Of a DNA stretch of 54,906 nucleotides, positions 19,101 through 51,010 are shown piece after piece. A model generated the notes under the pieces. It made no database searches. It was not told where the DNA came from and worked only from the letters and a program-made list of their open reading frames with translations. Source of the stretch: a virus (taxonomy: Duplodnaviria > Caudoviricetes); the IMG/VR virus record IMGVR_UViG_3300032303_000606, positions 1 to 54,906 of that record; one strand, written 5' to 3'. The position numbers and the translations under genes are program-made. Numbering within the stretch: the first letter of the stretch is position 1; each line of letters starts with the position of its first letter.

Positions 19101-21236
19101 TCCAGGCGTACCTGATGAATCTTTCTTTTTTGCCCCGACAGCACCTTCAATTGTTCCGTCAGCGCTTCTAATTCCGTATGGGCCAATAGCGTTAAGACCT
19201 ATAGATGGAGTTTCTTTTAGGCCAAGAATTTCTTGAACAAGTTTTGCAAATCCTCTATCAAAGCCTTTTTCAATTTCAGTTTGAGTAATACCGATTGGCA
19301 CAAGTTGCAGAGCTCTTCCAGCCTTGTCTTCTGCTGCAGCGTCAGAACTGCTTTCATCCCTTTCAGCTGAGGCACCTTTGGTAGTCTCACTGCTCCAAAA
19401 CATTCCATTATCTTTTATTTTAGTTAGTGGAGTAGATGGGGATAGAATTGACTTATTTCCAGCTGCCCTTAATTCCTTGGCTCTAGTATTTGCCTTTTCG
19501 ACAGCAAGCATTACAGCTTCAAAAACCATCTGCAATTCTTCAGCCGTTACAGCAGCAATTTCATCACTTAATCCTTTACTTGCAGCATCGCTACTAACTG
19601 TATATATACCAGCTTTTTTATCTTTAGACTTGCTACCAAGCGATAGGATGTCAGTTAATTCTTTTGTGCTTTGGTTTGCGTCTCGTAGGTTTTTAGCCAT
19701 GTCTTCGCTAGCAGTAACAATAGAACCACTTGCTTCACTAGAATCACCTTTAACAAACTCACTATTAACAGCAGCTTCTGCAGAGCCTTTTTGTTTTTTA
19801 GTAGACCCTTTTTCATCATCTTCGACATAATTGCCAAATTCATCAATTAAATCTTCTAGGGCCTGTCTAAGTTCTGTTTCGCTATCGCTAGTATTTTCAA
19901 GTTGGCCTTTTAGCTCATCAATCATAGAGCTAAAGTCAGCCTTAGTATCTCTAAGAATTACTGCAATTCCACCTTGACCCTTAGAGGCTTTGTCAGCTTG
20001 TTCTTGAGAAACTTTATTAGGAAGTAGAAGACGCAGTGCTGGAATCATGAAGTTAGCAATAGCACCACCACCAGCCATTTGATTATCAAAAATAGTGCCA
20101 ATACTACTAGCACCTCTAGCGGCAGCAGTTTCTCTTGCAAGCTTTAAAATCTTATCTGCAGCTTCGTTAATTGCACCATACTGCTTGCCACCAAGTGGAG
20201 CAGTTGACCTAGTAGCTGGAAGATTTCCAGGATTCTTAACACCACTTTCAGATGGCCCCCTAGAACCCCGCATACCTTTAGTAATTTCTTTAACACCACT
20301 AGTTTTGCTTGTGCTAGCGTCAGATAAAACATCTAGCTCATCTGTAACCCAAAGCAAGTAGTCATGAGTCTTTTTAATTTTTTTAACGTAGTCTTCAACA
20401 ATTTTCTTGTCAGCTGCGCTTCCAGTCTTGTCAAGCTGTTTCTTTGCATCAGCATATTCTTGTCGCATCTTCTTTAAGGCACTAGATGTACGTTTTTGAA
20501 CATCTTTAAAGTCTTGGACTTGCGCCTTCATTGCCGCTACTACTTCAGGGCCACGCTCTAGTTTTTCAAGTTCTTTTAGAAGCGCTATTCTTTCTGAGGC
20601 CGCTTTTCTATTAGCCTTTGCTCTAGCCTCATTGGCTTTTTTAGTCTCTTCATACTCAACTTTAATTGCATTAAGAATATCTGGTGATTCAATTAATTTT
20701 TGAAGTTCTTTTTGAGCAACAGCAATTTCATCCATTTGCTTTGAAACACTAGCAGTAAGCTCTCTTCTTTCCTTCTGAAGTTTACCTAAAGCAGTTTTTA
20801 TAACTTCAATCTGAGTATTGATTACAGGACCCGGAGAGCTAGACTTTAGAAGAGCTTGTAATGCAATTTGTCTGTCAGCAATAAAACCATCAAGCTGCTT
20901 AATTCTTTTTTGAATAGTACCAATAGCACTAGGTGCAGCTTTCTGCAAAGCTGCTGGCACTTTTTCGGAAGCAAGGCCAGTTGTCTTAGTGTTTTTATCT
21001 CCAATTGAAACTTTAAGTTTATTGATTCTAGCTACAGATGCCTCAACCTTATCAAGGTCTTTTTGATACTTAGTATCAATTTTTACCTTTATTGGAGCAA
21101 CTTTAAAATTGATAGACTTAAGCTCTTCACGTACAACTCTAGCTTTTTTGCGAGCATCTGCGACAAAGGCAGCAAGCTCCTTGCTTGCTGCGCTTATATC
21201 TAACCCAAGGGATATATTAAAGTCTTCGCCAGCCAC
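10140..21236 (-). CDS. Giant tape measure protein (~3,698 aa) with internal DEDDh exonuclease domain
   Basis: Follows the chaperone pair; TP901-type TMP core at ~14200-15200; GPG.TSDS.P.MLS.GEYV motifs at C-terminus; GTG start after AGGAGA. Confidence 0.9.
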   Translation of the reverse strand: MAGEDFNISLGLDISAASKELAAFVADARKKARVVREELKSINFKVAPIKVKIDTKYQKDLDKVEASVARINKLKVSIGDKNTKTTGLASEKVPAALQKAAPSAIGTIQKRIKQLDGFIADRQIALQALLKSSSPGPVINTQIEVIKTALGKLQKERRELTASVSKQMDEIAVAQKELQKLIESPDILNAIKVEYEETKKANEARAKANRKAASERIALLKELEKLERGPEVVAAMKAQVQDFKDVQKRTSSALKKMRQEYADAKKQLDKTGSAADKKIVEDYVKKIKKTHDYLLWVTDELDVLSDASTSKTSGVKEITKGMRGSRGPSESGVKNPGNLPATRSTAPLGGKQYGAINEAADKILKLARETAAARGASSIGTIFDNQMAGGGAIANFMIPALRLLLPNKVSQEQADKASKGQGGIAVILRDTKADFSSMIDELKGQLENTSDSETELRQALEDLIDEFGNYVEDDEKGSTKKQKGSAEAAVNSEFVKGDSSEASGSIVTASEDMAKNLRDANQSTKELTDILSLGSKSKDKKAGIYTVSSDAASKGLSDEIAAVTAEELQMVFEAVMLAVEKANTRAKELRAAGNKSILSPSTPLTKIKDNGMFWSSETTKGASAERDESSSDAAAEDKAGRALQLVPIGITQTEIEKGFDRGFAKLVQEILGLKETPSIGLNAIGPYGIRSADGTIEGAVGAKKKDSSGTPGSKDIAAVARIIGPDSALTKVIQNILQKVNEGLTNPKLEPQLSMLSEDFTPMEWKALGEQDIVDIHMSLQSLQEEFLNTVLYFAALTQDNKIRTDTGQTRQDTTTPDSMSLLPGSSQSNPQLDTFFKLFNSTRTSGTKKVTALNADGSPMLNDFGEPITKEIKNIFDDFTEGVSPVVTALRYLSKVFEDIYKIPMAGNLGKTGKFNELGLPSASGTESTYAQAFMKNRNGFIADMLKASAPMVSVGKKDSTDKAGGAELPIEKLNGILEKLDRTTDGPAYGLKGTMDDGSQVDVNNFLLNEMANIFAKSSAAVTQGRITTDTGVRQGPISYGPMDAIRAKYGETVNGLTAGLAPGVSRAEQAGADTAQGFIDGYEGTMEIESPSKRMKRSGDNTIDGLEEGLFDGIARLDKAGRELADSFHTGWSEEARVSAAELIQKLEKEGTDAAKARIQNGLKMMRSAPPVPEQQTSTLPSMRTEEERKRLADVGRAAGAGTPPYVPPAKSPGFKLSTQEEIERRNAENLKLLDIARAKAEDILVALDIETTGISRDKDTGKTNRARVFGYSVVAGAGEFSREPGALPGTPVVTPSMTGVAHGMLVPPKDGTRFSMGAADALGLLGTGKNITTDILPNLIKRITSLGYGKEKTTGSEQEYVNQLEDIAHILRKLYDESIPLAIHSQPLSDLTTLGKEFAHYGIAAPTAGQFKDKGLLVETQSMGKMLGGYMRDLSGKVAGKVGAMYELLTGKTMGAELIPPVGNTPKLADKTAVAHDPTIDTAATLVNAFTMRNAAGQAGMSKPDLLGKSVQLLGATWQKVSDAIWGSRKFAPKEDPQKYVTGSPTEMKSFKRQEAVHGGQLQPPYGPQQAPAPKPAVEPVVPAQDPQQAAQEAGDAAARQQKLIDDLEKEKARIRKLKAQAEFQYEVDLLEEDQSRLKLLLADLDNIMKTQGKSASPQQAKDVLALRAKIAKKMAERPDVADAYQRQIQANGGIRSMELDAGGDWQNRFRAKKPRIPKSDLQKQLEKQIKETQAEIDTQLGTQTQAQPKTPRIPGSVIAAPLAELQAAEQRIQKSLTSAVASGLGPTLISRLEQELAYVQKSIKSGPVGKRRMRDGNGQLTSAEVDVFAAEGVRGAKDRVAGKSQITNIKKQLLAELKVAEEKGYTETIQAVSQLIAELDASVASGPVGKYKNGRDAFELPDGIRKRKQKDDTKLPNLEGTAAPGAYDNVTHQSWMDQGIEAEAKKRKAASEMIKGQMKGEMTVMAQVEKYNRKMMDSWISGRYALYDVANTYQQFQRVLMSVGREFQKAVQTFASYETSFTSVERAMQPLPDEFAGMRNEIVKLTGELPVAFDELSKITTLGAQMGIKADGITNFTEQVTKFSAITGLASDTVAQKFGRIAQLAKVPSEDFDKLGSAVAFAGVNAVATDEEILTLTENIAAAANNSGFAADEVVGLATAMSSLGIAPEQARGVITRLFGDINRAVEGGGKPLDAYAKHLGMSASQAKELWKSDPQGFFKAMLDGLKNSKNMTGALDGLNIKETREVSTLQKLANNMDVYNQSMADAQESYANGSFLSDSYAKTQDNLATKMELMNNQLKMLQDAFGQALSPAVGLAVDAINWLITSMNEWSKNPMAKVAMQIIAGIAGLIAVMVTYKMISMKATAATLAFRTAQVSLSKISGQDTGLNGFRKMLMGQEQLIIRSNGRIEVASKKRIKEMEAAGEIKIAPRGSSEDLTLRAGADARRAGFDSTKGMIDQKSGMAQATLTSNQDTIATLENTDAKVANTTATEANGAAAMTEAEAKTASALATQEEIAVIGEQISIKQAALALLENEILVKEASLGATTGNTVATEASIAASRADAAAIQGEIIALESKQAALAGTNVAQAETVALMTAGESITNKFGGALTKLTMAAGAISVVLMAVSAISSYIEGLKVNLEEAGGGIASFREAIYKDTSAWKDGADAIGTYKSKVTTQQKQITTWAESMQNATGSVVELDDKVTHVTESVKNQTLALGENSKEWLAQAVMKDDVVQKKFESWFDQGLDLDALAQQANVKISDMIGMALADPGKGAQDYLSAWFADGLIPKQYRDQLYGDLNDIAAALDGTTEAGLRNTKIWKALKGATGAAGDGLDEFDNNLNETIKRVYTLTDYVGDLSTIIGAAFTIRYGSVEAVDKLETSWAGVSDRLSEAKKQMQAINQEISAMTADKNILEYQLNIALKYGDTLRADKIRAELDTKRSEITNKQAEYNKAAEDASTGLTGNSRGAIANRDTILGLVGDYNSELAALANEYSKYTGKNQKADRDRIKAKADSLKSEFKTKAMGLGFAENELAPYVKSFEDFKTIVNKLPNTLTLKVVADPGTRAFMEWWAKSSENPANQTSTKDTSKTDKKKKKGQSGKVVGYNPSTTPIEDLKPTAVRGPTQAQQAGGFWYDVGNVGLNAINLAVQPINFAASAFTPSSWNGESSYMGNVERNWYAGNGGSKDNIWGSNKGKSKWTGYDAEYQQADYEKRLATWNKKHALPTGYKESDRAGLAAKHRKMYPGHYNPYDGSVNFYKEPPIVKKFGRPLADLASVHAALNPGKYNPYTQVVNPINLSAAQKKAASAWKDAKSLAELGKEHEKLYPGEYNPYTHSVNAGVIDISKSNNKQFADYLQHGGKSTDPMYVKNVNEALYKNAKDSPKDGWGNMREGWKLAGYNERGDAVYEYEKKAMGGFVGKRYESGGKVFGPGSGTSDSVPAMLSSGEYVIKADAAKALGPYVLNAINKGNLPANKKPNPVGKDWTQILGEWFGKQMDSKWKARNNKDQNRGETHGELGRIKSLDKYSNARIDSSLHSWRQQMRSTGEISMRPTRMPSFVGGMLGGSFGGGGLLDRNNMSSGGLVTGPGSSTSDSVPKMLSNGEYVVNARAVKTYGIDFLNALNRMQSYRQSYGSQQSASSGSGNIVVELSPEAVNQLMAMSNRPINLYSDDRQIATSANRGNRLLAMRGSN

Positions 21237-24904: not shown

Positions 24905-25370
24905 AGTTAGGCTTTATGTCTTGATTAACTTCACAAACAATACCACGTGACCATGTATTTGAGCTGTTAATTACTGATTTAACTGAATATGTAAAATTTA
25001 ACATTTGCGCGTCAGCTGGTGAAGCAGTTACTTTAACTTCATGGCCTGGGCGAATATCTGCAATGGTGTGATTAAATCCTGTAATATCATTTCTCATGAT
25101 ATTAAAAAACATTGCAACATCTTTAGTTGATGCTGGAAGAAAATCATTACTACCTTCAGCTGCAGTAAAAGGTCGGTTTGGCTGTATTCTAGCCCAGCCT
25201 TTATAGAGTATGGTTGGAGTACCGCTCCAAGTATTGTTTGTTGCATTATAAACTTTATCAACATTGTTTGGTTTAAAAATTTGTATATATGCTAAAGCAA
25301 ACCCATCCTCAACTGGACGATGATGAGTTGTCCAACGTGGGTCCAAAACTGGACGACTATTTAAAGCCAA
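24897..25370 (-). CDS. Head-to-tail stopper-like protein
   Basis: LYKGWARIQP motif; synteny. Confidence 0.65.
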   Translation of the reverse strand: MALNSRPVLDPRWTTHHRPVEDGFALAYIQIFKPNNVDKVYNATNNTWSGTPTILYKGWARIQPNRPFTAAEGSNDFLPASTKDVAMFFNIMRNDITGFNHTIADIRPGHEVKVTASPADAQMLNFTYSVKSVINSSNTWSRGIVCEVNQDIKPNYA

Positions 25371-25756
25371 TCGTTATCCCACTTTTCTGTAGGGCTAGCA
25401 ACAATAAATGTTTCAAATGAATCATACATATCATCTTCGCGAGCCTCGTCTTGAAGCTGCTTAGCCTGTGCACGAAGTTCAGCGCCTAGCTTAGCTCCAT
25501 CAGTAGAGAAGTCATAGGTCTTAATAACTTTGCTAATTAAGGCTTCAGAGGTTGCCAAGGCAAGCTTTGCGGCAGCGGCAGCTCTTTTAATATTGTTGCT
25601 ATAAAGCGTAATGAAAGCTTGAATTTGAGCATCATTAAAAATATAAGACGAAGCCGCAGTAAGGTCTTTAGGATTTTCTAACTGTTCCGTATCTGGAATA
25701 AGTAGGCGAACCTGACCAATAGCAGTTGAATAATTTGGGGGAGTAGTATCTGACAT
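25361..25756 (-). CDS. Head-to-tail adaptor
   Basis: GQVRLLIPD...FNDAQIQAF...AAA pattern; likely leaderless (TACAAT-6 nt-ATG). Confidence 0.75.
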   Translation of the reverse strand: MSDTTPPNYSTAIGQVRLLIPDTEQLENPKDLTAASSYIFNDAQIQAFITLYSNNIKRAAAAAKLALATSEALISKVIKTYDFSTDGAKLGAELRAQAKQLQDEAREDDMYDSFETFIVASPTEKWDNDWL

Positions 25757-25779
25757 GTATCTATTGTACCTTATCTTTT

Positions 25780-25971
25780 TTAACTAATGATTGCATTAAT
25801 CTCATCTTCAGTTAAACCTAATTTTTCTAATTTAGCTAAAGCTGATTGCCTAATAGCTAATGCTTCAGTTTCTTGTCTAGTAGATTCTTCTCTTGCTGCG
25901 ATTTCTTCTAGAGTTTCATCTCTTTCAGTTATTTCTCCAGTTTCACAGTTTATATCAGTTATTTTATTCAT
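25780..25971 (-). CDS. Small fibre-associated protein (chaperone-like)
   Basis: N..TGE..ER..T.EE and KL.KLGLTEDE pattern commonly found after fibre genes. Confidence 0.65.
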   Translation of the reverse strand: MNKITDINCETGEITERDETLEEIAAREESTRQETEALAIRQSALAKLEKLGLTEDEINAIIS

Positions 25972-28292
25972 TAATTAACTCCATAAATAGTAGCGGTTCC
26001 GGTAGCACCGGTCCATGTATTAGTTGTTGCTTGAAATGAAATTTGACTTATTGCTGATGTGGTAGTTCCTACTCCCCATCTTGATGCGTTTGTTGTAGCA
26101 CCAATTCCACCAGAAAGCCACATGGTTGGGTTTGGTGAATTGTAGTTTGGTATTTCAACTGTGTATATGTTAGTTATTGTTGGTGAAGTTGCGATTGTAG
26201 TTAGCGGCATTCCATTAGCAGAACCTGCTGACGTTGAAGATGTGGTTGAACCAGTTGAGTATGTTGTATAAGCAACAGTAGAACCAGAGTTTACGCTCAT
26301 GGAAAATGTTCCAGCTAGGCTAGGAACATTTGTAAATGATATTTGTACAACAAGCTTTTTGTAAGTTTGAGGAATTGAAGAAAATGATGGCTGTGTTCCG
26401 CTAAATATAGATTCAGCAATTTTAGTATATCCTTTATCTGCCCAAGTAGGGGTAACGCCAGTACCAGAGGATGTAAGCACTTGTCCGGCACTACCAGCTG
26501 AAGTGTTCATTCGAAGTTCTCTGGTAGTTCCAGAAAGGTCTAAGTTTCCAGTAATGCTTCCACCGAATGTTGAGAAAAAAGAACTCCAAGCCCAACCACC
26601 ACTGACTGGTGCATAAACTGGCGCTTGACCATAAGATGGTGACACATACTGCATGAAATCTGATGGTGAAATCGCTCTAAATGATGGTACTCCAGCAGCT
26701 CCTGTTGGTGCAGCAAAAAACCTTGATGCTGTTTGACTTGGAAGAGTAATGCTATTAAGAGTTAAGTCAGATGACCATTGAGTGTTATAGCTTGTGCCGT
26801 CAATCTTTGATAAAACTTGATTAGCAGTTCCGAGGGCAGGTACGCCCTGACCGTTAGTTCCGTTAGAGCCATTAGTTATAGTAAAAGTAGTAGTAGTTGC
26901 ATCGGTAAAAGTAATCGTATAAGTATCAACTAAACCTGCTGTTGAAGTTTTAACTACTGTAGATATTCCTTTACCAGTAGTACCTGTCGCACCATTATTG
27001 ACTGTGAATGTTGATGTTGTCGAATCAGAATAGGTAATTGTATATGTATCAACTAAGCCAGCAGTATTAGTTTTAGAAATTGTAGAAACTCCACGACCAG
27101 CAGCACCATTAGCACCATTAACTACAGTAAAAGTGGAAGTTGAAGCATCGGAGTAAGTTATTGTATAGGTATCGGTAGAACCCGCAAGCCCAGTACCAGA
27201 AGTTCTAGCGATAGATGTAATACCACGACCAGTACCACCATTAGTGCCATTTGAACCATTATATACAGTAAAAGTAGTTGTAGAACCGCTCGTATAAGTA
27301 ATAGTAAAAGTGTCTGTTGTTCCAGCAGCACCAGTTCCAGATGTTCTAGCAATCGAAGTAATGCCATTACCTGTTGCACCAGTAGCCCCAGCAGGTATTC
27401 CAAAGTTAAATGTTGCTGCACTAGAATTTCCCACATTGGTAATAGTTGGAGTTGAACCAGCAGATAGTCCTGTGACAGTTCCTACTGCAATAGTTGCGGC
27501 AGCACCGTTAGTTCCATTAGTTCCATTGACTACTGTGAAGGTGGAAGTTGTAGAATCAGAATAACTTATTGTATAAGTATCAGTAGAACCAGCAAGTCCT
27601 GTGCCTGAGGTTCTAGTAATTGATGTAATACCACGACCAGCAGCGCCATTAGACCCGTTGTAAACACTGAAAGTACTTGTAGAACCACCTGTATAAGTAA
27701 TAGTGAAAGTATCTGTTGTTCCAGCAGCACCAGTTCCAGAGGTTCTGGATATAGATAAAACTCCATTTCCAGTAGCACCAGTATCGCCTTTTAGGCCAGT
27801 ATCGCCAGTTAAACCAGTATCTCCTTTAGGACCTTGCAGACCAGTGTCGCCTTTTGGACCTTGTAGACCAGTATCACCTTTAGAACCGGTTAAACCAGTA
27901 TCACCTTTAGCTCCAGTAGAGCCAGTAGCTCCAGTAGGTCCTGTAGGGCCCGTAGGGCCGGCTGGTCCTGTAGCGCCCGTTGCTCCAGTAGCACCTGTAG
28001 CTCCAGTAAAGCCCATTGGGCCCTGTGGGCCATCATCACCAATAAGCCCCTGTAAACCCCTAGGTCCAGTAGGCCCTGTAGCGCCCGTAGGGCCAGTTGG
28101 TCCGGCTGGACCAGTAGCACCTGTAGCACCAGTTTCTCCACGCTCTCCTTGAGGCCCCTGTAGCCCCCTTGAGCCACCTCCGCCATCTCCAGAGCTATTA
28201 GGTTTTTTATCAATACGCTTAATTTCGCGTTCAACAGTATCAGCCCAATCTTGAGCTGGGTCTGGTAAATTATTATTTGGAAAAATTATCAT
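25971..28292 (-). CDS. Collagen-like fibre protein with ~42-aa Gly/Thr repeats
   Basis: Long G-X-Y tract, then six G.GI.SI..T...G..DT.TITY....STFTV.NG units; ATG at 28292 follows TATAAT. Confidence 0.85.
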
Positions 28293-28313
28293 GATGCCTT
28301 CATTATACCCTAT

Positions 28314-28376
28314 AAAAAGTCCACCCCGGAGCAAAAGCTCAACAGGGTGGACGGCCACGAAGGAGGGAACGTGACA
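28314..28376 (-). ncRNA. Putative stand-alone sRNA with anti-Shine-Dalgarno loop
   Basis: TGATATAAT promoter (28382-28390); hairpin GTCACG-TTCCCTCCTT-CGTGGC; then terminator GTCCACCC...GGGTGGAC-TTTTT. Confidence 0.62.
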
Positions 28377-28395
28377 ACTAAATTATATCAGCAAT

Positions 28396-28423
28396 AAAAA
28401 ACCCCGCCTTTTGAGCGGGGTTT
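28396..28423 (-). terminator. Intrinsic terminator after the major capsid gene
   Basis: AAACCCCGC-TCAAAAG-GCGGGGTTTTTT. Confidence 0.88.
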
Positions 28424-28439: not shown

Positions 28440-29567
28440 TTATGAACCAGCACCAGTAGAAGCAATTGTTCCGGTAGGAAGCAAGAATCCACCAGTAGCA
28501 ATGTGACGAATTCTCATTTCAAAGTCGTCATTGTCGAATCCACCCTCGCGAGCAGGAACGGCACCGCCACCTAGGTATAGACCACCACTAGCCTTAACAC
28601 GAAGCTCAGGAGTCTCGTATCCACGAAGGAATCCAAGAACCAAACCTGGGTTTAGCGTGTCAGCAGGTACAGGAAGTAGGAACCAGTAGTTGTCTGAGCT
28701 AGAGTTAATCTTCTTCAACCATGGGTTTACAACAATTTCGATTGAAGCTGCAAGCGGGTTGCCTGTAATAGTAGACTTAACAACTGAACCAGTTGTAGTC
28801 TCTGTACGAACCTGCTGGATAGCAAGAATCTTCTTAGCTGTTAGCTCTAGACCAGCATTTACAACAAGCACGAAACGGCTCAAAGGCACAGCGTTACGAG
28901 AGTTGTAAGTCTGTAGGTTAGCCTGTGTAATCGCAGCCTCAAGAGCTTCAAGGCTTAGAGGTGCGTTAACGGCAGTACCAAGAGCAGAGTTAGCTGTTAG
29001 AAGGTTCTGGTTAGCAGTCTTGAAGTTAGTGGTGTTTAGACCACCAGAAGCAACAAGCTGCTTAGTAACTTCTTCATCTTCCTTACCGGCAGCCTTACGA
29101 GCAAGCTCGATAGGTAGACGTTCTAGAATAGAGATGTTTCCATCATTGATGATAGATTCCCATGAGAAGCGGATACGCGCACCGGCCTTCTTTACGTTGA
29201 ACTGAGCTTCGGTGAAAGAGAACCAACCAGCAGTTGGGTACTCATCATATTCAGCAACAGTTGCAAGTGAGCCATTACGGAATGTATCACCAGCGTTGTC
29301 ATAACCTTCATCGTCATAAGCCATGTTCATATACTTAACTGGACGGAAGTCGTCTACAACAATCTTTTGTGCAAGCATGTCCCAAATCTTAGGCTGTGCA
29401 GCATAGTTTTGGAGCATGATTTTGTTAATAACAGGAGCGAGCTGTGTAGGTAGGTCGCTTGTGGCAATACCTTCCTGAAGTCTTAGCTTGGCAGTGCGGT
29501 CACCTTGGATAGCACCTTCAAGAATCTTCGCAGCTTCGACCTGACGTGGAGTAATATTTTCAGTCAT
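28440..29567 (-). CDS. Major capsid protein (Mu gpT-like)
   Basis: V.DFRP, V.EY.EY, K.GARI..SWE.I.ND, FDNDD...RIRH motifs; followed by terminator. Confidence 0.88.
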   Translation of the reverse strand: MTENITPRQVEAAKILEGAIQGDRTAKLRLQEGIATSDLPTQLAPVINKIMLQNYAAQPKIWDMLAQKIVVDDFRPVKYMNMAYDDEGYDNAGDTFRNGSLATVAEYDEYPTAGWFSFTEAQFNVKKAGARIRFSWESIINDGNISILERLPIELARKAAGKEDEEVTKQLVASGGLNTTNFKTANQNLLTANSALGTAVNAPLSLEALEAAITQANLQTYNSRNAVPLSRFVLVVNAGLELTAKKILAIQQVRTETTTGSVVKSTITGNPLAASIEIVVNPWLKKINSSSDNYWFLLPVPADTLNPGLVLGFLRGYETPELRVKASGGLYLGGGAVPAREGGFDNDDFEMRIRHIATGGFLLPTGTIASTGAGS

Positions 29568-37064: not shown

Positions 37065-37262
37065 CTATTCGACTGGGGGATGCCTTTTCCCGACCAAAGG
37101 AAACTTTTTGACTACTTCTGTTTCGATTAGTTTATCTGCAAACATGCATTCACCTTTTTTGAATGCTTCAAATGCCATATTCATTGCTTCTTCTTGGCTT
37201 TTTGCTTCAAAGAATCCTGATACGTATTCAATGATTTTTCCGTTGATTTCGTATTCTGGCAT
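37065..37262 (-). CDS. Small protein of the 'EA.S.EEA' (DpnD/PcfM-like) family
   Basis: FEAKSQEEAMNMA; TAATG-coupled to the amidotransferase gene. Confidence 0.65.
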   Translation of the reverse strand: MPEYEINGKIIEYVSGFFEAKSQEEAMNMAFEAFKKGECMFADKLIETEVVKKFPLVGKRHPPVE

Positions 37263-38428
37263 TAGTCCCAATCCTCAAATAGGCTTGTGTGACGTGCTTT
37301 GCTTGACCAATGTTCTTCGTAACGCCAGTGTTCGTAGTCTTCGTAGAGTTGTTCTTCGTCTCCGACTACTGCTCCTGTTTCTGAATCGTGGTAGAATCCG
37401 GTTACTTCGTCATATGTGAATGATGCAAGATAGTCTTTGAAGCCTTTTATGAATCCTTTGTCTTCATCATAGTCGATGTCGTCTTCATGTGTTGCTTCTT
37501 CTTGCATTGTGATTTCGTAACCGTCATAGTATGACCATGTTTTACCTACTAGGTTCCAACCTATTTTTAGGTTCTTGTAGTTCCAATCATCTATTTCTTC
37601 TTGTTCCCACTTGTCATAATCGACTGGTTCACAGACTCCATCTCCGTAACCATCCCACTTTGACAATGCACGACTACCATTTGTGATTGAGCGATAGTCG
37701 TAATATGGCTTTTTGTAGGTTACTGGCTCTTCGTAGATTGGGTTTGTTTGTGGTACTGTATCCCAATCTGTGATTATGCCGTTTGCTACTGTGATTGCTG
37801 TGTGTTCTTTTAGGTCCAGAACCCATTCGTATTCTAGTTTCATGCGTTTTAGCGCTTTGTCTAGAATTAGTTCTGTTGATGCGAATACGAATGAACCGTC
37901 CATTAGGTTTGCTATTACTAATGGTGAGTGCTCGATTCTTGCTACATGCAGTTTGCCTGCAGCTCTTTCGTCTAGCCATGCGATTGCTGCGTCGCCTTCA
38001 ATCATCTCTAATCCTTGTAGGCCGTTTTGTTCCAGTGTGGCCGGGATTACTGATGTGTCGACTTCTGGCAGCCATCCTGTTACGTGCTTACGCACGATGT
38101 TGTGGTTCCAGATAACTCCGTTATGCACTAATGCAATGTTGAGGTCTGGTGATATTACTGGATGGTTATTGCGCATGTCTTTGATTGTGCCGTGTGTTGC
38201 CATTCTGGTATGCAGGATAACGTTTTGTGCACGTTTAGGCATTCCGAATGTTTTGAGTTTTGAACCTGGAACATCTTTTTTGAAGATGCCTGATTCTGTT
38301 CCTCTTGACCAAGCAAAGCCTGATGCTTGGTTGCCGCGCGTTTCTAGTTCTGCAAGCATTGCATGACTGAGTTTGCGGGCGTTTACTTTGCTTCCTGATG
38401 CGAGGCTAAATCCGCCAATTCCGCACAT
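37262..38428 (-). CDS. Class II (Ntn) glutamine amidotransferase with acidic C-terminal extension
   Basis: MCGIGG N-terminus (Cys2), RG..ASG, HTRMATHG, NNHP, VHNGVI, VDT. Confidence 0.92.
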   Translation of the reverse strand: MCGIGGFSLASGSKVNARKLSHAMLAELETRGNQASGFAWSRGTESGIFKKDVPGSKLKTFGMPKRAQNVILHTRMATHGTIKDMRNNHPVISPDLNIALVHNGVIWNHNIVRKHVTGWLPEVDTSVIPATLEQNGLQGLEMIEGDAAIAWLDERAAGKLHVARIEHSPLVIANLMDGSFVFASTELILDKALKRMKLEYEWVLDLKEHTAITVANGIITDWDTVPQTNPIYEEPVTYKKPYYDYRSITNGSRALSKWDGYGDGVCEPVDYDKWEQEEIDDWNYKNLKIGWNLVGKTWSYYDGYEITMQEEATHEDDIDYDEDKGFIKGFKDYLASFTYDEVTGFYHDSETGAVVGDEEQLYEDYEHWRYEEHWSSKARHTSLFEDWD

Positions 38429-38565
38429 ATGTTTTTTCCTTCTTTTTGTAGTGGGGGAGCCAGATTGTTCTGACTCCCCCGGTTGGATTTCAGGTTATGC
38501 TAGCATTCCTGCGAATACGATAAACAGGAATACCGTGAGCGCTATAGTCGATGCTATAGCGTCTT

Positions 38566-38904
38566 CTATTTGCTTGTTTTTACCAGCTTAGTTACCTTCT
38601 TCCTTTTATTCCCTGGCGTTCTTTCGAACTCAGGGTTGAACCGCACATATACGGTCCAAGCTTTTTTGTCAGGATGACTGTTTGCTAGGTTGTTTCCTCC
38701 TGTTTGAACTACTTCAATGTTTTTGAAGCTGTCCATTAGACGATAACCCCATGTGTGTTGCCCGATTGTTGCTGGGAACTTACCCCAGCGCATTGGGTTT
38801 GCATACAGCTCTTCAATGAATGCTGTTACGTCGTACTTGGGCTTGCGTCCAAGTCTTGTTTTGGCGATTTCTAGGTCGTCAACCCATTCTACTGCTGGTT
38901 TCAT
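38566..38904 (-). CDS. Hypothetical protein
   Basis: GRKPKYD...LYANP.RW...VYVRF pattern; ATGA overlap with the amidoligase gene. Confidence 0.75.
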   Translation of the reverse strand: MKPAVEWVDDLEIAKTRLGRKPKYDVTAFIEELYANPMRWGKFPATIGQHTWGYRLMDSFKNIEVVQTGGNNLANSHPDKKAWTVYVRFNPEFERTPGNKRKKVTKLVKTSK

Positions 38905-40424
38905 GCTATTGCTATCCTGTTCCGAGACTGGTTGTAACGTGAACCCATTGGGTCATCTACGATTTCTGTCTCTTTGAATGTGGTAAAACCATACTTTGCG
39001 TATAGTTTGATGAATCCTTCTACATCTACGATGTTGAAGAACTCTGTGATTACTGCTCCACGTTTTGCAACTTCTACTAGGCCACGAACCATCCATGCGA
39101 AGAATGTGATTCTGTCATAGTCGAAGTTACAGTTCATTTGACGGAACTCTAGTGTTCCGCGGTCTGATGTAACGTGTAGCGTGTTTACTGCGGTGAACTT
39201 ACCAACGCTGTAAAGTGTTTTGTGACGCAAGGTGTGTGATACTGCTACTCCTGGCACAAGGTCTGCATACTGCTTGCAGCGGTTGTCATTCTCTACATCG
39301 CGACCTGAGATTACATCCCATACACGCTGTGTTAGAGCGTATGCACCTAGAACTACACCAATCTGTACTGCTTCTAGGTCTTTAGCGTATACGTGAATGT
39401 GTGTACCTGCTGTCTCATTCTTTTCTGTATCATCGATTTGAGCCAGAAGTTTCTTGAGTCCTGGATGCTGAGCTCTAGGAATACCGCCTGTTGTACGGTA
39501 TTCGTATGATGAGCATGATGCACAGTCGTCGTAGCCACAGTGTTGTGGGTCGTCGTTTCTGTTGTCACAGTCATCACAGTCGCAGTCGTGATATCTGCAG
39601 TCTGAGCAGCTGCAGTCGCATTCTGAATGGTCACTGTCATATGATTCTACAGAGCCATCTGAACCTCTTTCTACGCCTGGTGGAACTACAACATCTTCAC
39701 CTGGGTTTGGAGCTTCTACTTCCCATCCCCATGTACGAGCTACAAGCATGTTTTCGACTTGACCTTGCCACATTTGAATTTGATTTTCTATGGCTTCTGC
39801 ATCAACTTTTTTGTTTCTGTTTTTGTTGATTTTGTCGCTTAGGCCTCTGTCGCCTGCTTGTTCTTTTGCTTGCCTGTCTTCATATCTTTTGATATTTGCG
39901 ACAGTGTTGTTCCAATACGCTAATGCGTTTCTTAGCGTTTCTGATTCAACTTCTAGGTTGATGATTAATGCTAGCAGTTCTTGATACTGGTAGTAGTTAG
40001 CTACACTGAACTGAGCATATGTGTCATCTTGTCCTGTCCCGATGTTTGCGCTGTGTCTGTCAATCTCGTTTATTAGAGATACTGTCACTGCTCTGTGAAT
40101 CATTGCGTTTACACGGTTTAGTGTGTAGTATTCTGCAACGTTTTGGCCGCGGTTTGCTGTTAGCAAGTTACCTTGTGTATCTAATGCCCATACTCTAAAT
40201 CTCAATGAGTTTCCGTAGACTACATTGATTTCTAGTGCGTCTGTGTCTGGCAATTGATAGAAGGTTCTAATGTTGTCATTAGACCTTTGGTCAGACATTT
40301 CTTGAAGCCAAACTCCGTTTAGCGCTTCTGAGTCAACGAATTGCTCGATTATTGCTGAGACTCGTTGCATTTCTTTTGAGGCCCATTCACTCATGACCTG
40401 CCTTAATGACATTGTTGTTGTCAT
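38901..40424 (-). CDS. Putative amidoligase (COOH-NH2 ligase, Amidoligase_2-like)
   Basis: TWGWEVE, DGSV, YEYRT, TAGTHIHV, KF.AVN, TLEFRQ motifs; adjacent to the GATase gene. Confidence 0.8.
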   Translation of the reverse strand: MTTTMSLRQVMSEWASKEMQRVSAIIEQFVDSEALNGVWLQEMSDQRSNDNIRTFYQLPDTDALEINVVYGNSLRFRVWALDTQGNLLTANRGQNVAEYYTLNRVNAMIHRAVTVSLINEIDRHSANIGTGQDDTYAQFSVANYYQYQELLALIINLEVESETLRNALAYWNNTVANIKRYEDRQAKEQAGDRGLSDKINKNRNKKVDAEAIENQIQMWQGQVENMLVARTWGWEVEAPNPGEDVVVPPGVERGSDGSVESYDSDHSECDCSCSDCRYHDCDCDDCDNRNDDPQHCGYDDCASCSSYEYRTTGGIPRAQHPGLKKLLAQIDDTEKNETAGTHIHVYAKDLEAVQIGVVLGAYALTQRVWDVISGRDVENDNRCKQYADLVPGVAVSHTLRHKTLYSVGKFTAVNTLHVTSDRGTLEFRQMNCNFDYDRITFFAWMVRGLVEVAKRGAVITEFFNIVDVEGFIKLYAKYGFTTFKETEIVDDPMGSRYNQSRNRIAIA

Positions 40425-41157: not shown

Positions 41158-41353
41158 GTTTTTCCTTTGTTATTCCTAACCCGGAGCCGGCTGGCGGGGG
41201 GTCGCAGACTCCCCCTGTCAGTTGGCCTATCGTCACATGCATTTGTTTTAACTCTTTATCTATCTTGTCGAGTTCTTTTCCAATCCGCTTGTATTCTTTT
41301 TTGATTGGACGCATTTTCCACCAGTATATGATTGCTGATTTTTTGATTTTCAT
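41138..41353 (-). CDS. Basic hypothetical protein
   Basis: AGGAGA RBS and ATGA overlap at 41353; 3' part runs through a hairpin. Confidence 0.55.
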   Translation of the reverse strand: MKIKKSAIIYWWKMRPIKKEYKRIGKELDKIDKELKQMHVTIGQLTGGVCDPPPAGSGLGITKEKHVANIS

Positions 41354-41757
41354 TTTTCTCCTATGTTTTTGACCCATGCGAAGGTCAGGATGTAATCATT
41401 GTTGTTGATTACGATTTTGTATGCTGGGTCAACGATTTCTACTAGCTCTCCGTCTTTTCCGTTGATACTTACGTTTTGCATTGTTGAGCCATTGAATTCT
41501 ACTACTTCTCCAATTGACTGCATTGGAACTATCCCTGCGTAATTCATTTTCATCTCTACGCTTGCTGTTATTTGATTTGCTGGGATTATTCCTCCATCCA
41601 TTCTTACAATTCTTGCTGCTTCTGCGAATTGTTTTGTGATGGTGTATGTTGCTGAAATTACTCTAGATTCTAAGAGCGCATTATTTTTTTTATGAGCTTC
41701 TCTTAGGTATCCTTCTAGTGTAATTATTTTTTCTTTGAGTCTGTCTAACTCATCCAT
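41350..41757 (-). CDS. Hypothetical protein with N-terminal coiled coil
   Basis: AAGGAGA RBS before ATG 41757. Confidence 0.75.
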   Translation of the reverse strand: MDELDRLKEKIITLEGYLREAHKKNNALLESRVISATYTITKQFAEAARIVRMDGGIIPANQITASVEMKMNYAGIVPMQSIGEVVEFNGSTMQNVSINGKDGELVEIVDPAYKIVINNNDYILTFAWVKNIGEK

Positions 41758-41819
41758 GTTTATCTCCTTATCCCCCCCTTCCGAGGGCTCGCCGACGCTT
41801 GAAGGAAGGGGGGCATCCA

Positions 41820-42360
41820 TATTTACAAATTACAAATACAAATTACTGATTACTAGAACAATGTAGTTACAGCGATTGATATTGTATGCATCTGCTGATG
41901 AGAATGGCGAGGTTTCAAAATATGGGCGGGTTTGCGATTTGTGGGTGAGAATGGGGGTTGTCGGTGAGATGGGCGACTTTTTTGGATATGCGCGGTTTTG
42001 GTTTTCACTCTCTATCTATGTTATTTATATATATATTATTATATATAATAACTAGTATAGATACTACACTTTGAAAACCGGCCTTTTCTCGATTGAATAT
42101 GGTAGAAATACCCCTCTTTTTACCATATTTGATTACTCTCACTAGCTCCCCAAAGGTCTTATCCGACATTTTTCAAGAAAAAAAATAGTGTTTTTTTTTA
42201 GTTTTTTTGTTGTATTCCTTCATGTCATGCGATAGACTGGTGGTTGAATGTGGTGAGTTTGGCTATATTCAATCTCAAAAAAAAGTTTGAAAAAAGTTGG
42301 TTTTCAACTTGACAAACGAAGAAACACTCCACTAGTATTGGAGTATCAAGAAAAAAGGAG
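41820..42360. promoter_or_regulatory. Divergent control region
   Basis: Non-coding; AT-rich core at 42020-42065; TTGACA-18 nt-TAGTAT at 42309-42338 overlapped by inverted repeat ACTCCA-N7-TGGAGT; TAGACT at 42233. Confidence 0.7.
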
Positions 42361-42365
42361 GCTCA

Positions 42366-42617
42366 ATGCACATCATCAGAAGCGGGGTTTACGACCTAGC
42401 AGTTCAAGAAGTCATGGAAGAACAAATTGTTATAGATATGGTAAATGAACTAAAAGAAATGAACCCAAACATAACACTAGAACAGTTAGAGGGATTCGAG
42501 TTTACACAAAAAGCAAACGCAGAATACCATAACAGAGGTGGCAACAAAGCAAAATATATTGGAACAGTTCCAGAAGCAATCAGAAAACTAATCAAAGGAG
42601 AAGATAACAATGACTAA
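42366..42617 (+). CDS. Early hypothetical protein
   Basis: AAGGAGG RBS; first gene of the rightward block. Confidence 0.8.
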   Translation: MHIIRSGVYDLAVQEVMEEQIVIDMVNELKEMNPNITLEQLEGFEFTQKANAEYHNRGGNKAKYIGTVPEAIRKLIKGEDNND

Positions 42618-43207: not shown

Positions 43208-43382
43208 ATATGTAAAGCACCTAACACTAGAAGAACTTGCTGAAAGATTGGCAGGCGAATTAGTTGACACACACAGGGATACTGGTATAGACTTAGGCTA
43301 CTGGGAAACCGCAAGAGAACTCGTAGAGCGATTTTACGATGTCCGAGTACACCTAACCATTTCTAAAAAGGAGGCAAAATAA
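43200..43382 (+). CDS. Hypothetical protein
   Basis: GAGGAGG RBS. Confidence 0.72.
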   Translation: MTKYVKHLTLEELAERLAGELVDTHRDTGIDLGYWETARELVERFYDVRVHLTISKKEAK

Positions 43383-43468
43383 TGGGTAAGATGAAAGATA
43401 TTTACACAGACCTACAAGATGTAGAAGTAATTCTATTGGAGGAGGCTCAAAGTAGCGAGCAAGCGTAA
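43382..43468 (+). CDS. 28-aa peptide
   Basis: AAGGAGG RBS with TAATG coupling; MGKMKDIYTDLQ... Confidence 0.6.
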   Translation: MGKMKDIYTDLQDVEVILLEEAQSSEQA

Positions 43469-43762: not shown

Positions 43763-43899
43763 CTAACCAAATATACTGCCCACAATGCGACGAGATAACT
43801 TCTCAGGGCGCATTAGATAAATGGGGCATGTGTCACAACTGCGAAAAGCAGACATGCCCAGAATGCGGACAAGTGTTCTGCAACCACAACTATTCCTAA
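43759..43899 (+). CDS. 46-aa zinc-finger mini-protein (not in ORF track)
   Basis: GAGGAGG RBS; CPQC...CHNC...CPEC...CNH. Confidence 0.7.
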   Translation: MTNQIYCPQCDEITSQGALDKWGMCHNCEKQTCPECGQVFCNHNYS

Positions 43900-43912
43900 G
43901 GAGGAACAAAAT

Positions 43913-44290
43913 ATGAAAAATACATACAGCATTGAAAGGGCTCTAGTAGCCACTACACCACGCCACCTAGTAACTGCGACAGGTTTGCCTATTACCAGTT
44001 TTAGAGTGGCACACGCGTTCACTAAGCCGTCTCACGACGGGGGTAGAGAACAGTCACACACTAACTGGTTCACTATCACATCTTTTGGTGAACTAGCCAC
44101 AGAGATGGCAGAGAAAGTCTCTAAGGGTAACCGCATAGACCTTACTGGGCTATTGTTTATTAGGGATTGGGATAATGGCGAAAGGGCTGGAACTTCTGTT
44201 GAAGTTGAAGTTACAGAATACGCAATTCGCTACCCTGAGCCACCAGCAACACGCACACACGACTGCAACTGCGTAGATTGCGTAAAGTAG
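43913..44290 (+). CDS. ssb: Single-stranded DNA-binding protein, host-like OB fold with Cys-rich tail
   Basis: LVATTPRHLVT..GLPITSFR.A, TNWFTIT.F..LA, KG.R....G.L.IRDWDNGE; AAGGAGG RBS. Confidence 0.85.
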   Translation: MKNTYSIERALVATTPRHLVTATGLPITSFRVAHAFTKPSHDGGREQSHTNWFTITSFGELATEMAEKVSKGNRIDLTGLLFIRDWDNGERAGTSVEVEVTEYAIRYPEPPATRTHDCNCVDCVK

Positions 44291-50221: not shown

Positions 50222-50281
50222 TTGGTCAAACAGACCGATTGAATATGATATACTCTATTTACAGACACTAAGGAGGTCCAA

Positions 50282-51010
50282 ATGAGTAATTTACTACCAC
50301 TGCCTTTCGAGGCACATATCAAAAAAGCACAAGCGCTTAACACACCTAAAACTATTCTGATTTATGGTGACCCTAAGCGTGGCAAGTCTTGGCTTGCCGC
50401 ATCAGCCGCAGAGATTGCTGAACTGTCACCGGTTCTTGTAATCGATACTGAGGGTGGTTCTTCTGCTATTGCTAGAGACTGGAAAGATGTTGATGTCGTT
50501 GAGGCTGATACGCATGAAAAGTTCCAAGCAATTGTTACATCTCTAACATCACAGCCACACAAGTATAAGACAGTTATTGTCGATACACTTGGCGTATGTA
50601 TGGATAGAGCAGAAAAATTCTTTGGCGAAAAGCCTGAGAATAAGAATAACAAGTTTGGCCGTTGGGGCGACTTGAAGAACTGGACGAATGATTTTATTCG
50701 TGCATTCCATGGCGCACCATTCCTGTCAATCATTGTTACTCACGCACAGGATGAAAAGGACGAGAACACTGGGGCAGTAAAGACTATCCCAATGCTCCCA
50801 GGCTCATCTAAGGGAACGCTTCCAGCAATCCCAGACATCATTGGTTACATGACCAGTGAGAAGACCGAGGACGGTGTACAGCGTGTGCTATACTTGCAGT
50901 CCTCAGACCGATTGGTTACTGGTAACCGCTTCGGCCTTGCACCAAAAATGTATGCACCAAGCATCAAAAAAATCATCGATGAAATCAAAACCGTAGGAGG
51001 TAAAAAATAA
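50282..51010 (+). CDS. Sak4-like AAA ATPase (recombination)
   Basis: IYGDPKRGKS, IDTEGG, VIVDT, VTHA; lies between exonuclease and SSB. Confidence 0.85.
   Translation: MSNLLPLPFEAHIKKAQALNTPKTILIYGDPKRGKSWLAASAAEIAELSPVLVIDTEGGSSAIARDWKDVDVVEADTHEKFQAIVTSLTSQPHKYKTVIVDTLGVCMDRAEKFFGEKPENKNNKFGRWGDLKNWTNDFIRAFHGAPFLSIIVTHAQDEKDENTGAVKTIPMLPGSSKGTLPAIPDIIGYMTSEKTEDGVQRVLYLQSSDRLVTGNRFGLAPKMYAPSIKKIIDEIKTVGGKK

Follow-up and report, generated by a model that had tools for sequence, protein, structure and literature searches.

A conserved phage small RNA with an anti-Shine–Dalgarno loop, a candidate regulator of early-gene translation

Temporal control in phages is, to our knowledge, almost always put down to transcription, i.e. 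to sigma factors, antiterminators, and repressors. Among phage RNAs, sar of P22 is an antisense RNA that occludes a ribosome-binding site (RBS), the lambdoid late promoter yields a short terminated transcript, and the put RNAs of HK022 form two adjacent stem-loops. Phages also counter RNase toxins with RNA mimics. For actinobacteria, excerpts of PMC6486639 describe the cellular 6C sRNA, whose C-rich loops bind G-rich RBSs without the help of chaperones. The excerpts of PMC2790875 report that the UCCC loops of RsaE and RNAIII bind Shine–Dalgarno (SD) sequences, that binding of the UCCC motif to the SD in Firmicutes prevents formation of the initiation complex, and that stable Gram-positive sRNAs are laid out as a 5′ hairpin followed by a 3′ terminator. 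In excerpts of a 2025 review on phage sRNAs (PMC12197685), no passage deals with actinobacterial phages or mycobacteriophages, and SD sequences come up only for FnrS/AsxR. The predicted phage RNA described here follows the layout of the Gram-positive sRNAs in the excerpts of PMC2790875, which is in line with a putative transcription unit of its own.

The window analyzed here, i.e. the whole stretch of 54,906 bases, is a complete virus record with direct terminal repeats. A siphovirus structural module occupies the minus strand from ∼2.3 to 34 kb and comprises genes for the terminase, portal, protease, decoration protein, major capsid protein, collagen-like fibre, and major tail protein. On the plus strand, small early genes and genes for replication (SSB, SNF2 helicase, AAA_24, DUF669, and DUF3987 primase) extend from 42.3 kb to the window end. 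No tRNA gene was found in the window, and DNA similarity to deposited phages amounts to short collagen-repeat matches in five records. At the tape-measure position of the tail module lies a 3,698-amino acid ORF (10140–21236, minus strand), unusually large for a 55-kb phage. The leftward middle region (37262–40424, minus strand) contains a glutamine amidotransferase (GATase_6/7) gene and an amidoligase_2 gene ∼140 nucleotides apart, with one 112-amino acid ORF between them; the pair may represent a nucleotide- or DNA-modification module.

The predicted sRNA of ∼62 nucleotides lies on the minus strand at positions 28314–28375, with the base of hairpin 1 and the last letter of the U-run as its boundaries. 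Its upstream neighbor is the major capsid gene (28440–29567, minus strand; 375 amino acids; PHROG head/major head protein, best E-value 5e-46), which is followed by a terminator at 28396–28420 (minus strand; stem CCCCGC/GCGGGG, then a T-run) that was read from the sequence. A GC hairpin with a T-run is also found 3′ of the capsid gene in those relatives whose downstream DNA was printed. The putative sRNA promoter P1 (28382–28390, minus strand) is a TG-extended −10 box, TGATATAAT, without a −35 element, and is separated from hairpin 1 by six bases. Hairpin 1 (28354–28375, minus strand) consists of a 6-bp stem, formed by GUCACG (28375–28370) and CGUGGC (28359–28354), and a 10-nucleotide anti-SD loop, UUCCCUCCUU (28369–28360); all six stem pairs show compensatory changes among relatives. 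A single base connects it in the window to hairpin 2 (28319–28352, minus strand), a terminator stem for which covariation delineates an outer part that varies and an inner core that does not (G-UU-GAG ... CUC-C), followed by a run of five U (28314–28318, minus strand). As a bulged, GC-rich hairpin of 34 nucleotides and 14 bp directly ahead of these five U, hairpin 2 has the features of an intrinsic (Rho-independent) terminator. A preliminary description had assigned the extended −10 box, hairpin 1, the terminator, and the U-run to the minus strand right after the capsid terminator, and all of them are indeed located there.

A 67-nucleotide stretch folds into both hairpins with −31.9 kcal/mol (z = −6.35), and none of 200 shuffles was as stable. 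Our simple promoter and terminator scan overlooked the −10 boxes, since it needs a −35 element, and hairpin 2, owing to its loop-size rule; the capsid terminator is likewise absent from its listing. The sole plus-strand frame that follows the antisense AAGGAGG has eight codons, and its start falls inside a stem that covaries in relatives. We therefore rejected an antisense ORF, in agreement with the earlier claim that the locus has no coding capacity.

To follow the element in related phages, we collected 80 related loci from IMG/VR via the capsid protein (66–95% identity). In the DNA 3′ of the capsid gene of these relatives, the two-hairpin unit recurs with altered stem letters. A covariance model (R1) built from 37 sequences matched 62 of 81 sources once each, always on the strand of the capsid gene (E ≤ 1.9e-7), and found one copy in each of five further complete genomes. 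It also matched four of five records whose 3-kb flank had missed the RNA, the fifth of which ends at the capsid gene. Every sufficiently long relative thus carries exactly one copy at the same place. In the window, R1 has its only match at the sRNA itself (74.3 bits, E = 6e-15).

Across the 44 distinct sequences, 98.2% of the cells pair and 16 of 19 pairs changed on both sides, in an alignment fitted to the model, which favors the structure. The covariation score is 0.704 versus 0.176 in shuffles, none of 500 of which reached the observed value, and pairing falls to 37–50% in controls with slid partners. RNAalifold independently predicts the same two-hairpin structure. Every stem position of hairpin 1 varies, its pairs occurring as four to six pair types each. 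One pair is a U–G wobble in 21 of the 44 sequences, and further G–U pairs are found in hairpin 1. On the opposite strand these would be A–C mismatches, which argues for pairing at the level of RNA and against a DNA operator.

In hairpin 2, eight of nine outer-stem pairs show compensatory changes, and the core (window positions 28329–28343) has G58, U59, G63, A64, U84, C85, and C86 invariant in 44 of 44 sequences. Unrelated phage contigs (L111, L120, L159, L171, and L184) have terminators with the same core. About two-thirds of the family carry a GU-rich linker of 10–25 nucleotides (UGUGUUGUGUG-like) between the hairpins (columns 25–49 of alignment A3).

The preliminary description had proposed a covariance search against Rfam, and no family matches the RNA. 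At gathering scores, none of the 4227 models of Rfam 15 matched anywhere in the window. Between positions 28250 and 28450, an E-value cutoff of 10 returned 62 rows, all far below gathering and most of them on or spanning the capsid terminator, and 6C/B11 (RF01066) is absent from these 62 sub-threshold rows. A scan of viral contigs with a degenerate pattern gave mostly chance matches; among the 80 loci listed, 20 match R1 (E ≤ 0.001), and 15 of these score at least 42 bits. Three (L141, L158, and L168) are new members of the clade that carry the fibre gene. Others (L120, L159/L184, L162, L171, and L111) have the terminator core alone in common with R1 and lie in other contexts. In two unrelated contigs of ∼58% GC (at L159:6296–6378 and L184:2478–2540, both minus strand), a hairpin with a loop of the GCCUCCUUAG type and a second CACCUCC stretch accompany the same terminator core. 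These RNAs reach ∼32 bits with R1 and may represent a distant or convergent anti-SD RNA of another phage group.

Judged by its covariation and by its constant position, the RNA is a real, conserved, and undescribed phage sRNA family, and the same comparisons mark it as a core element of an uncultured, probably actinobacterial, clade of lake siphophages. Should the mechanism proposed below prove wrong, there would still be a well-supported new family of structured RNAs, with strong covariation among more than 44 distinct members, that is suitable for Rfam.

Within hairpin 1, conservation is highest in the loop, whereas the stem covaries among the 44 distinct relatives. CUCCU is present in 44, CCUCC in 34, and CCUCCUU in 32 of the 44 sequences, so that the preliminary description, which had staked its reading on conservation of the loop in relatives, holds on this point. 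The RNA has the hallmark of the anti-SD or C-rich-loop class of sRNAs, a conserved unpaired motif complementary to the SD. The 16S rRNA of one actinobacterial genome ends with ...GGAUCACCUCCUUUCU, and the loop matches seven nucleotides of this 3′ tail. On the 5′ side of CCUCC, the sequence departs from that of the 16S rRNA, with mixed C, U, and A in alignment columns 8 and 9. This divergence points to selection for pairing with AAGGAGG and not for mimicry of the full tail. As read from the alignment, the loop is under selection.

The signals flanking the hairpins are conserved as well. In 34 of the 44 distinct relatives, a TAnnnT box ends 5–7 nucleotides upstream of the first hairpin-1 base, and 26 have the TG extension; from this fixed spacing, the RNA would begin inside the stem of hairpin 1. 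In the eight nucleotides after hairpin 2, at least five T are found in 30 of 44 relatives and three or four in the other 14, in which the weak U-tract makes some read-through likely. The −10 box and the T-run thus agree with the earlier view of the locus as a putative stand-alone unit of promoter, hairpin, and terminator. A search for sequencing runs listed 17, among them no RNA run containing the stretch, a result that does not bear on expression. The candidate promoter of the rightward early genes (42290–42365, plus strand) has a −35 element (TTGACA) and a −10 element (TAGTAT) and lies ahead of the first early gene with its AAGGAGG RBS. It is preceded by a long, AT-rich, and repeat-rich control region (41760–42290). 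With its −10 box only, the putative P1 is of another type than the early promoter, a difference that does not tell early from late timing and lends no support to the late expression proposed in the preliminary description.

The window contains seven copies of AAGGAGG, all on the plus strand, versus 5.75 expected on both strands. The genome-wide count proposed earlier thus reveals no overall enrichment. Three copies are the RBSs of called plus-strand genes and candidate targets of the loop: at 42355–42361 before the first rightward early gene (42366–42617), at 43898–43904 before ssb (43913–44290; SSB Pfam match), where the loop duplex is predicted at −13.4 kcal/mol, and at 50270–50276 before the AAA_24 replication gene (50282–51010), whose orthologs are among the high-ranking predicted targets in four of five relatives. 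A fourth copy at 43368 precedes a 28-amino acid ORF (43382–43468, plus strand) below the usual gene-calling length. All four had been named as RBSs before, and all four do precede starts. The 28-amino acid ORF and the gene before it overlap at the stop codon of the latter (TAATG).

For a comparison of gene classes, we used a crude ORF picker that sets starts partly by SD energy, applied one rule to all classes, and scored GGAGG within 22 nucleotides upstream of the start. By this measure, GGAGG is present at 14 of the 27 early rightward genes, at none of the 26 late genes, and at 1 of the 17 leftward middle genes (early versus late, Fisher p = 1.2e-5). The late genes have RBSs of the types GAAAGG, AAGG, and GGAGA, which bears out the earlier statement that the structural-gene RBSs inspected there lack AAGGAGG. 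The mean SD energy is −9.46 kcal/mol for early, −6.25 for late, and −7.59 for middle genes (early versus late, Mann–Whitney p = 1.9e-5). Predicted duplexes between the 12-nucleotide loop and the RBS average −9.60 kcal/mol for early versus −5.87 for late genes (p = 1.1e-5); equally strong binding of late RBSs, which the preliminary description had named as evidence against its model, is therefore not what we find. In five complete relatives (G001–G005), GGAGG lies ahead of 47 of the 228 ORFs that are encoded opposite the sRNA versus 6 of the 211 that share its strand (p = 2.5e-9), in ORF calls that include spurious ones. The asymmetry between early and late genes is real in this phage, and the same bias exists in the five relatives.

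We ranked groups of orthologs present in at least four of six genomes by mean duplex energy and considered the best 12. The groups with the best mean predicted loop duplexes are replication genes (DUF669, DUF3987 primase, and AAA_24). In this ranking, none of the genes stood out as a sole target through extended or covarying complementarity. Strong predicted binding by the loop is simply a strong SD. The best match in the window, the leader of 41350–41757 (−19.2 kcal/mol), lies outside the best 12 groups, and we rejected a single dedicated target.

The best explanation for these observations, to which we give about an even chance, is a trans-acting sRNA that masks the GGAGG-type SD sequences of early and replication genes of the phage. 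Transcription would start at the −10-only promoter P1, at the base of hairpin 1, and would end at hairpin 2 and its U-run. Hairpin 1 would then display CCUCCUU, the letters of the core of the 16S rRNA 3′ tail, and the loop would pair in trans with GGAGG-type SD sequences and hinder binding of the 30S subunit. Because the strong sites are, in this phage and five relatives, nearly confined to the early and replication genes of the opposite strand, and late structural genes have weaker, different, or no sites, accumulation of the RNA would selectively down-regulate translation of early genes. A pairing of seven nucleotides competes with ribosomes that bear the same sequence, and a high dose of the RNA would therefore be required. 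More tentatively, and with the chances rather against it, the RNA may be a class switch made of RNA only, in which a 62-nucleotide mimic of the 16S rRNA tail silences early and replication genes with “super” GGAGG sites, and late messages with weak SD sequences or no leader, among them that of the neighboring fibre gene, take over the ribosomes. If true, a conserved core sRNA sorts messages by the type of their RBS in a protein-free translational switch from early to late expression, and the differing SD registers of early and late genes in one phage are explained.

An unlikely, if credible, alternative is that the unit is a cis-acting module of the fibre gene, insulating or tuning a leaderless fibre promoter located 16–35 nucleotides downstream. 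The collagen-like fibre gene (25971–28292, minus strand; 773 amino acids beginning with MIIFP...; PHROG tail fibre and collagen-like matches) directly follows the sRNA. Nine nucleotides before its ATG lies a second −10 box, P2 (TATAAT, 28302–28307, minus strand). In relatives, a −10-like box is found 6–9 nucleotides before the fibre ATG in 37 of 43 cases (34 by script, 9 read from the printout), with no conserved SD in between. RNA polymerase usually starts 6–8 nucleotides past the −10 box, so the fibre message is probably leaderless. The ATG of another late gene (25361–25756, minus strand) is located six nucleotides after a TACAAT box (25756–25768), and this gene appears leaderless, too.

The linkage of sRNA and fibre gene, which the preliminary description had not noted, is very tight and speaks for the cis-acting alternative. 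Both occur side by side in 58 of 80 loci, the fibre gene never occurs alone, two records are cut within the fibre start, and there is one exception (L080). The newly found clade members L141, L158, and L168 keep the adjacency. Where relatives have extra genes in this region (NrdH-like, small basic peptide), these separate the capsid gene from the RNA but in no case the RNA from the fibre gene. A global regulator that acts purely in trans would not require such a linkage, and the invariance of the linkage leaves room for a cis- or module-specific role. With two tandem terminators ahead of P2, the unit might stop polymerases that leave the highly transcribed capsid gene; read-through would otherwise occlude P2 and yield an untranslatable fibre RNA with a leader. 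Alternatively, it might be a short terminated leader that awaits an antiterminator, comparable with the short transcript ahead of the late genes of lambda. However, an insulator has no need of a promoter of its own at constant spacing, or of a CUCCU loop that stays invariant while its stem covaries freely. Moreover, in the exceptional locus L080 the RNA and a P2-like box precede a different gene with a 44-nucleotide leader, and Pfam and PHROG scans of 38 ORFs recognized no antiterminator gene. Masking of SD-like motifs inside the fibre gene was rejected, since these are not enriched there (2.15 motifs per kb versus 1.80 for all genes).

The slot between capsid terminator and sRNA is an insertion hot spot in relatives (L006–L009, L013, L028, and others; 0–1.5 kb past the capsid gene). 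The inserts include an NrdH-like glutaredoxin (beginning with MVTVYTLPSCVQCD...), a Lys/Arg-rich peptide of ∼28–45 amino acids, and other small genes. In the relative L060, a stretch ∼60–200 nucleotides 3′ of the capsid gene, between this gene and the sRNA, contains a T-arm-like GTTCGATTC motif and looks like a tRNA or tRNA-like gene.

The loop might also serve as a decoy of the 16S rRNA 3′ tail that titrates a host or phage factor recognizing or cutting the anti-SD, e.g. a MazF-type abortive-infection toxin, and so protects ribosomes late in infection; we regard this as improbable. The identity of the loop with the 16S tail core of one actinobacterial genome and the RNA mimics that phages direct against RNase toxins fit such a role. 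So does the actinobacterial MazF-mt11, which according to excerpts of PMC12274833 cleaves 16S rRNA at CACCU, immediately 5′ of the anti-SD, and halts translation of leadered mRNAs. Yet CACCU is present in only 3 of the 44 distinct loops, the letters 5′ of CCUCC are not conserved toward the 16S rRNA, and the conserved part is the exact complement of AAGGAGG.

Equally doubtful is a host shut-off RNA, the loop of which would mainly mask the SD sequences of host messages instead of those of early phage genes. An anti-SD loop would indeed pair with any GGAGG or AGGAG site. The only cellular match of the capsid protein is a 94%-identical capsid fragment on a 1.86-kb contig of an Actinomycetota metagenome-assembled genome (MAG) of ∼1.3 Mb, which is a weak host link. 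In 60 kb of this host-like MAG (47% GC), GGAGG precedes just 3 of 48 called genes, and the mean SD energy is −6.0 kcal/mol, like that of the late genes of the phage. The blocking of host mRNAs put forward in the preliminary description thus finds no support in the only host-like genome. If the MAG is the host, strong GGAGG sites would be peculiar to the early genes of the phage. Searches with R1 of the MAG and of 151 genomes sampled from its order, both run with no positive control, gave no match.

That there is no RNA gene at all, and the locus is a chance hairpin beside two terminators or an operator acting at the level of DNA, is barely conceivable: CTCCT-loop hairpins are common (358 in ∼1.1 Mb of related DNA, both strands, by script) and the simple scan lists no promoter here, but covariation above all 500 shuffles and all slid controls, G–U pairs specific to one strand, an invariant loop, and a single copy that keeps its position in all relatives of sufficient length speak against it, and it is this conservation, not the fold of a single sequence, that excludes chance.

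Compared with known systems, the locus resembles the lambdoid late transcript and the put RNAs of HK022 in that a promoter, a short structured RNA, and a terminator are located ahead of late or tail genes. Those RNAs act in cis on RNA polymerase, whereas the locus described here has a second promoter past the terminator and a conserved anti-SD loop, and no Q-like gene was recognized. The antisense RNAs c4 and sar are dedicated to a single target (ant), to which they show extended complementarity, whereas no such target was found for the present RNA. Like c4 of P1/P7, in which loops of a phage sRNA pair around the RBS and block translation (excerpts of PMC12197685), the RNA is predicted to act through loop–RBS pairing.

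Among cellular sRNAs, 6C/B11 (RF01066) shares with the phage RNA the pairing of a C-rich loop with a G-rich RBS and the probable host phylum, and its targets include the replication gene dnaB (excerpts of PMC6486639). 6C is a cellular RNA of greater length with several C-rich loops; the phage-encoded RNA differs in its fold, gives no match to RF01066, and has one loop with the exact CCUCCUU. The hairpins of RsaE/RoxS and RNAIII from Firmicutes (excerpts of PMC2790875) resemble it in having a hairpin at the 5′ end, a terminator at the 3′ end, and a conserved C-rich motif that is unpaired. In those excerpts, the sRNAs with UCCC motifs are cellular regulators of metabolism or virulence, each with specific targets, whereas the phage RNA matches no Rfam family, and its predicted targets are the early genes as a whole class.
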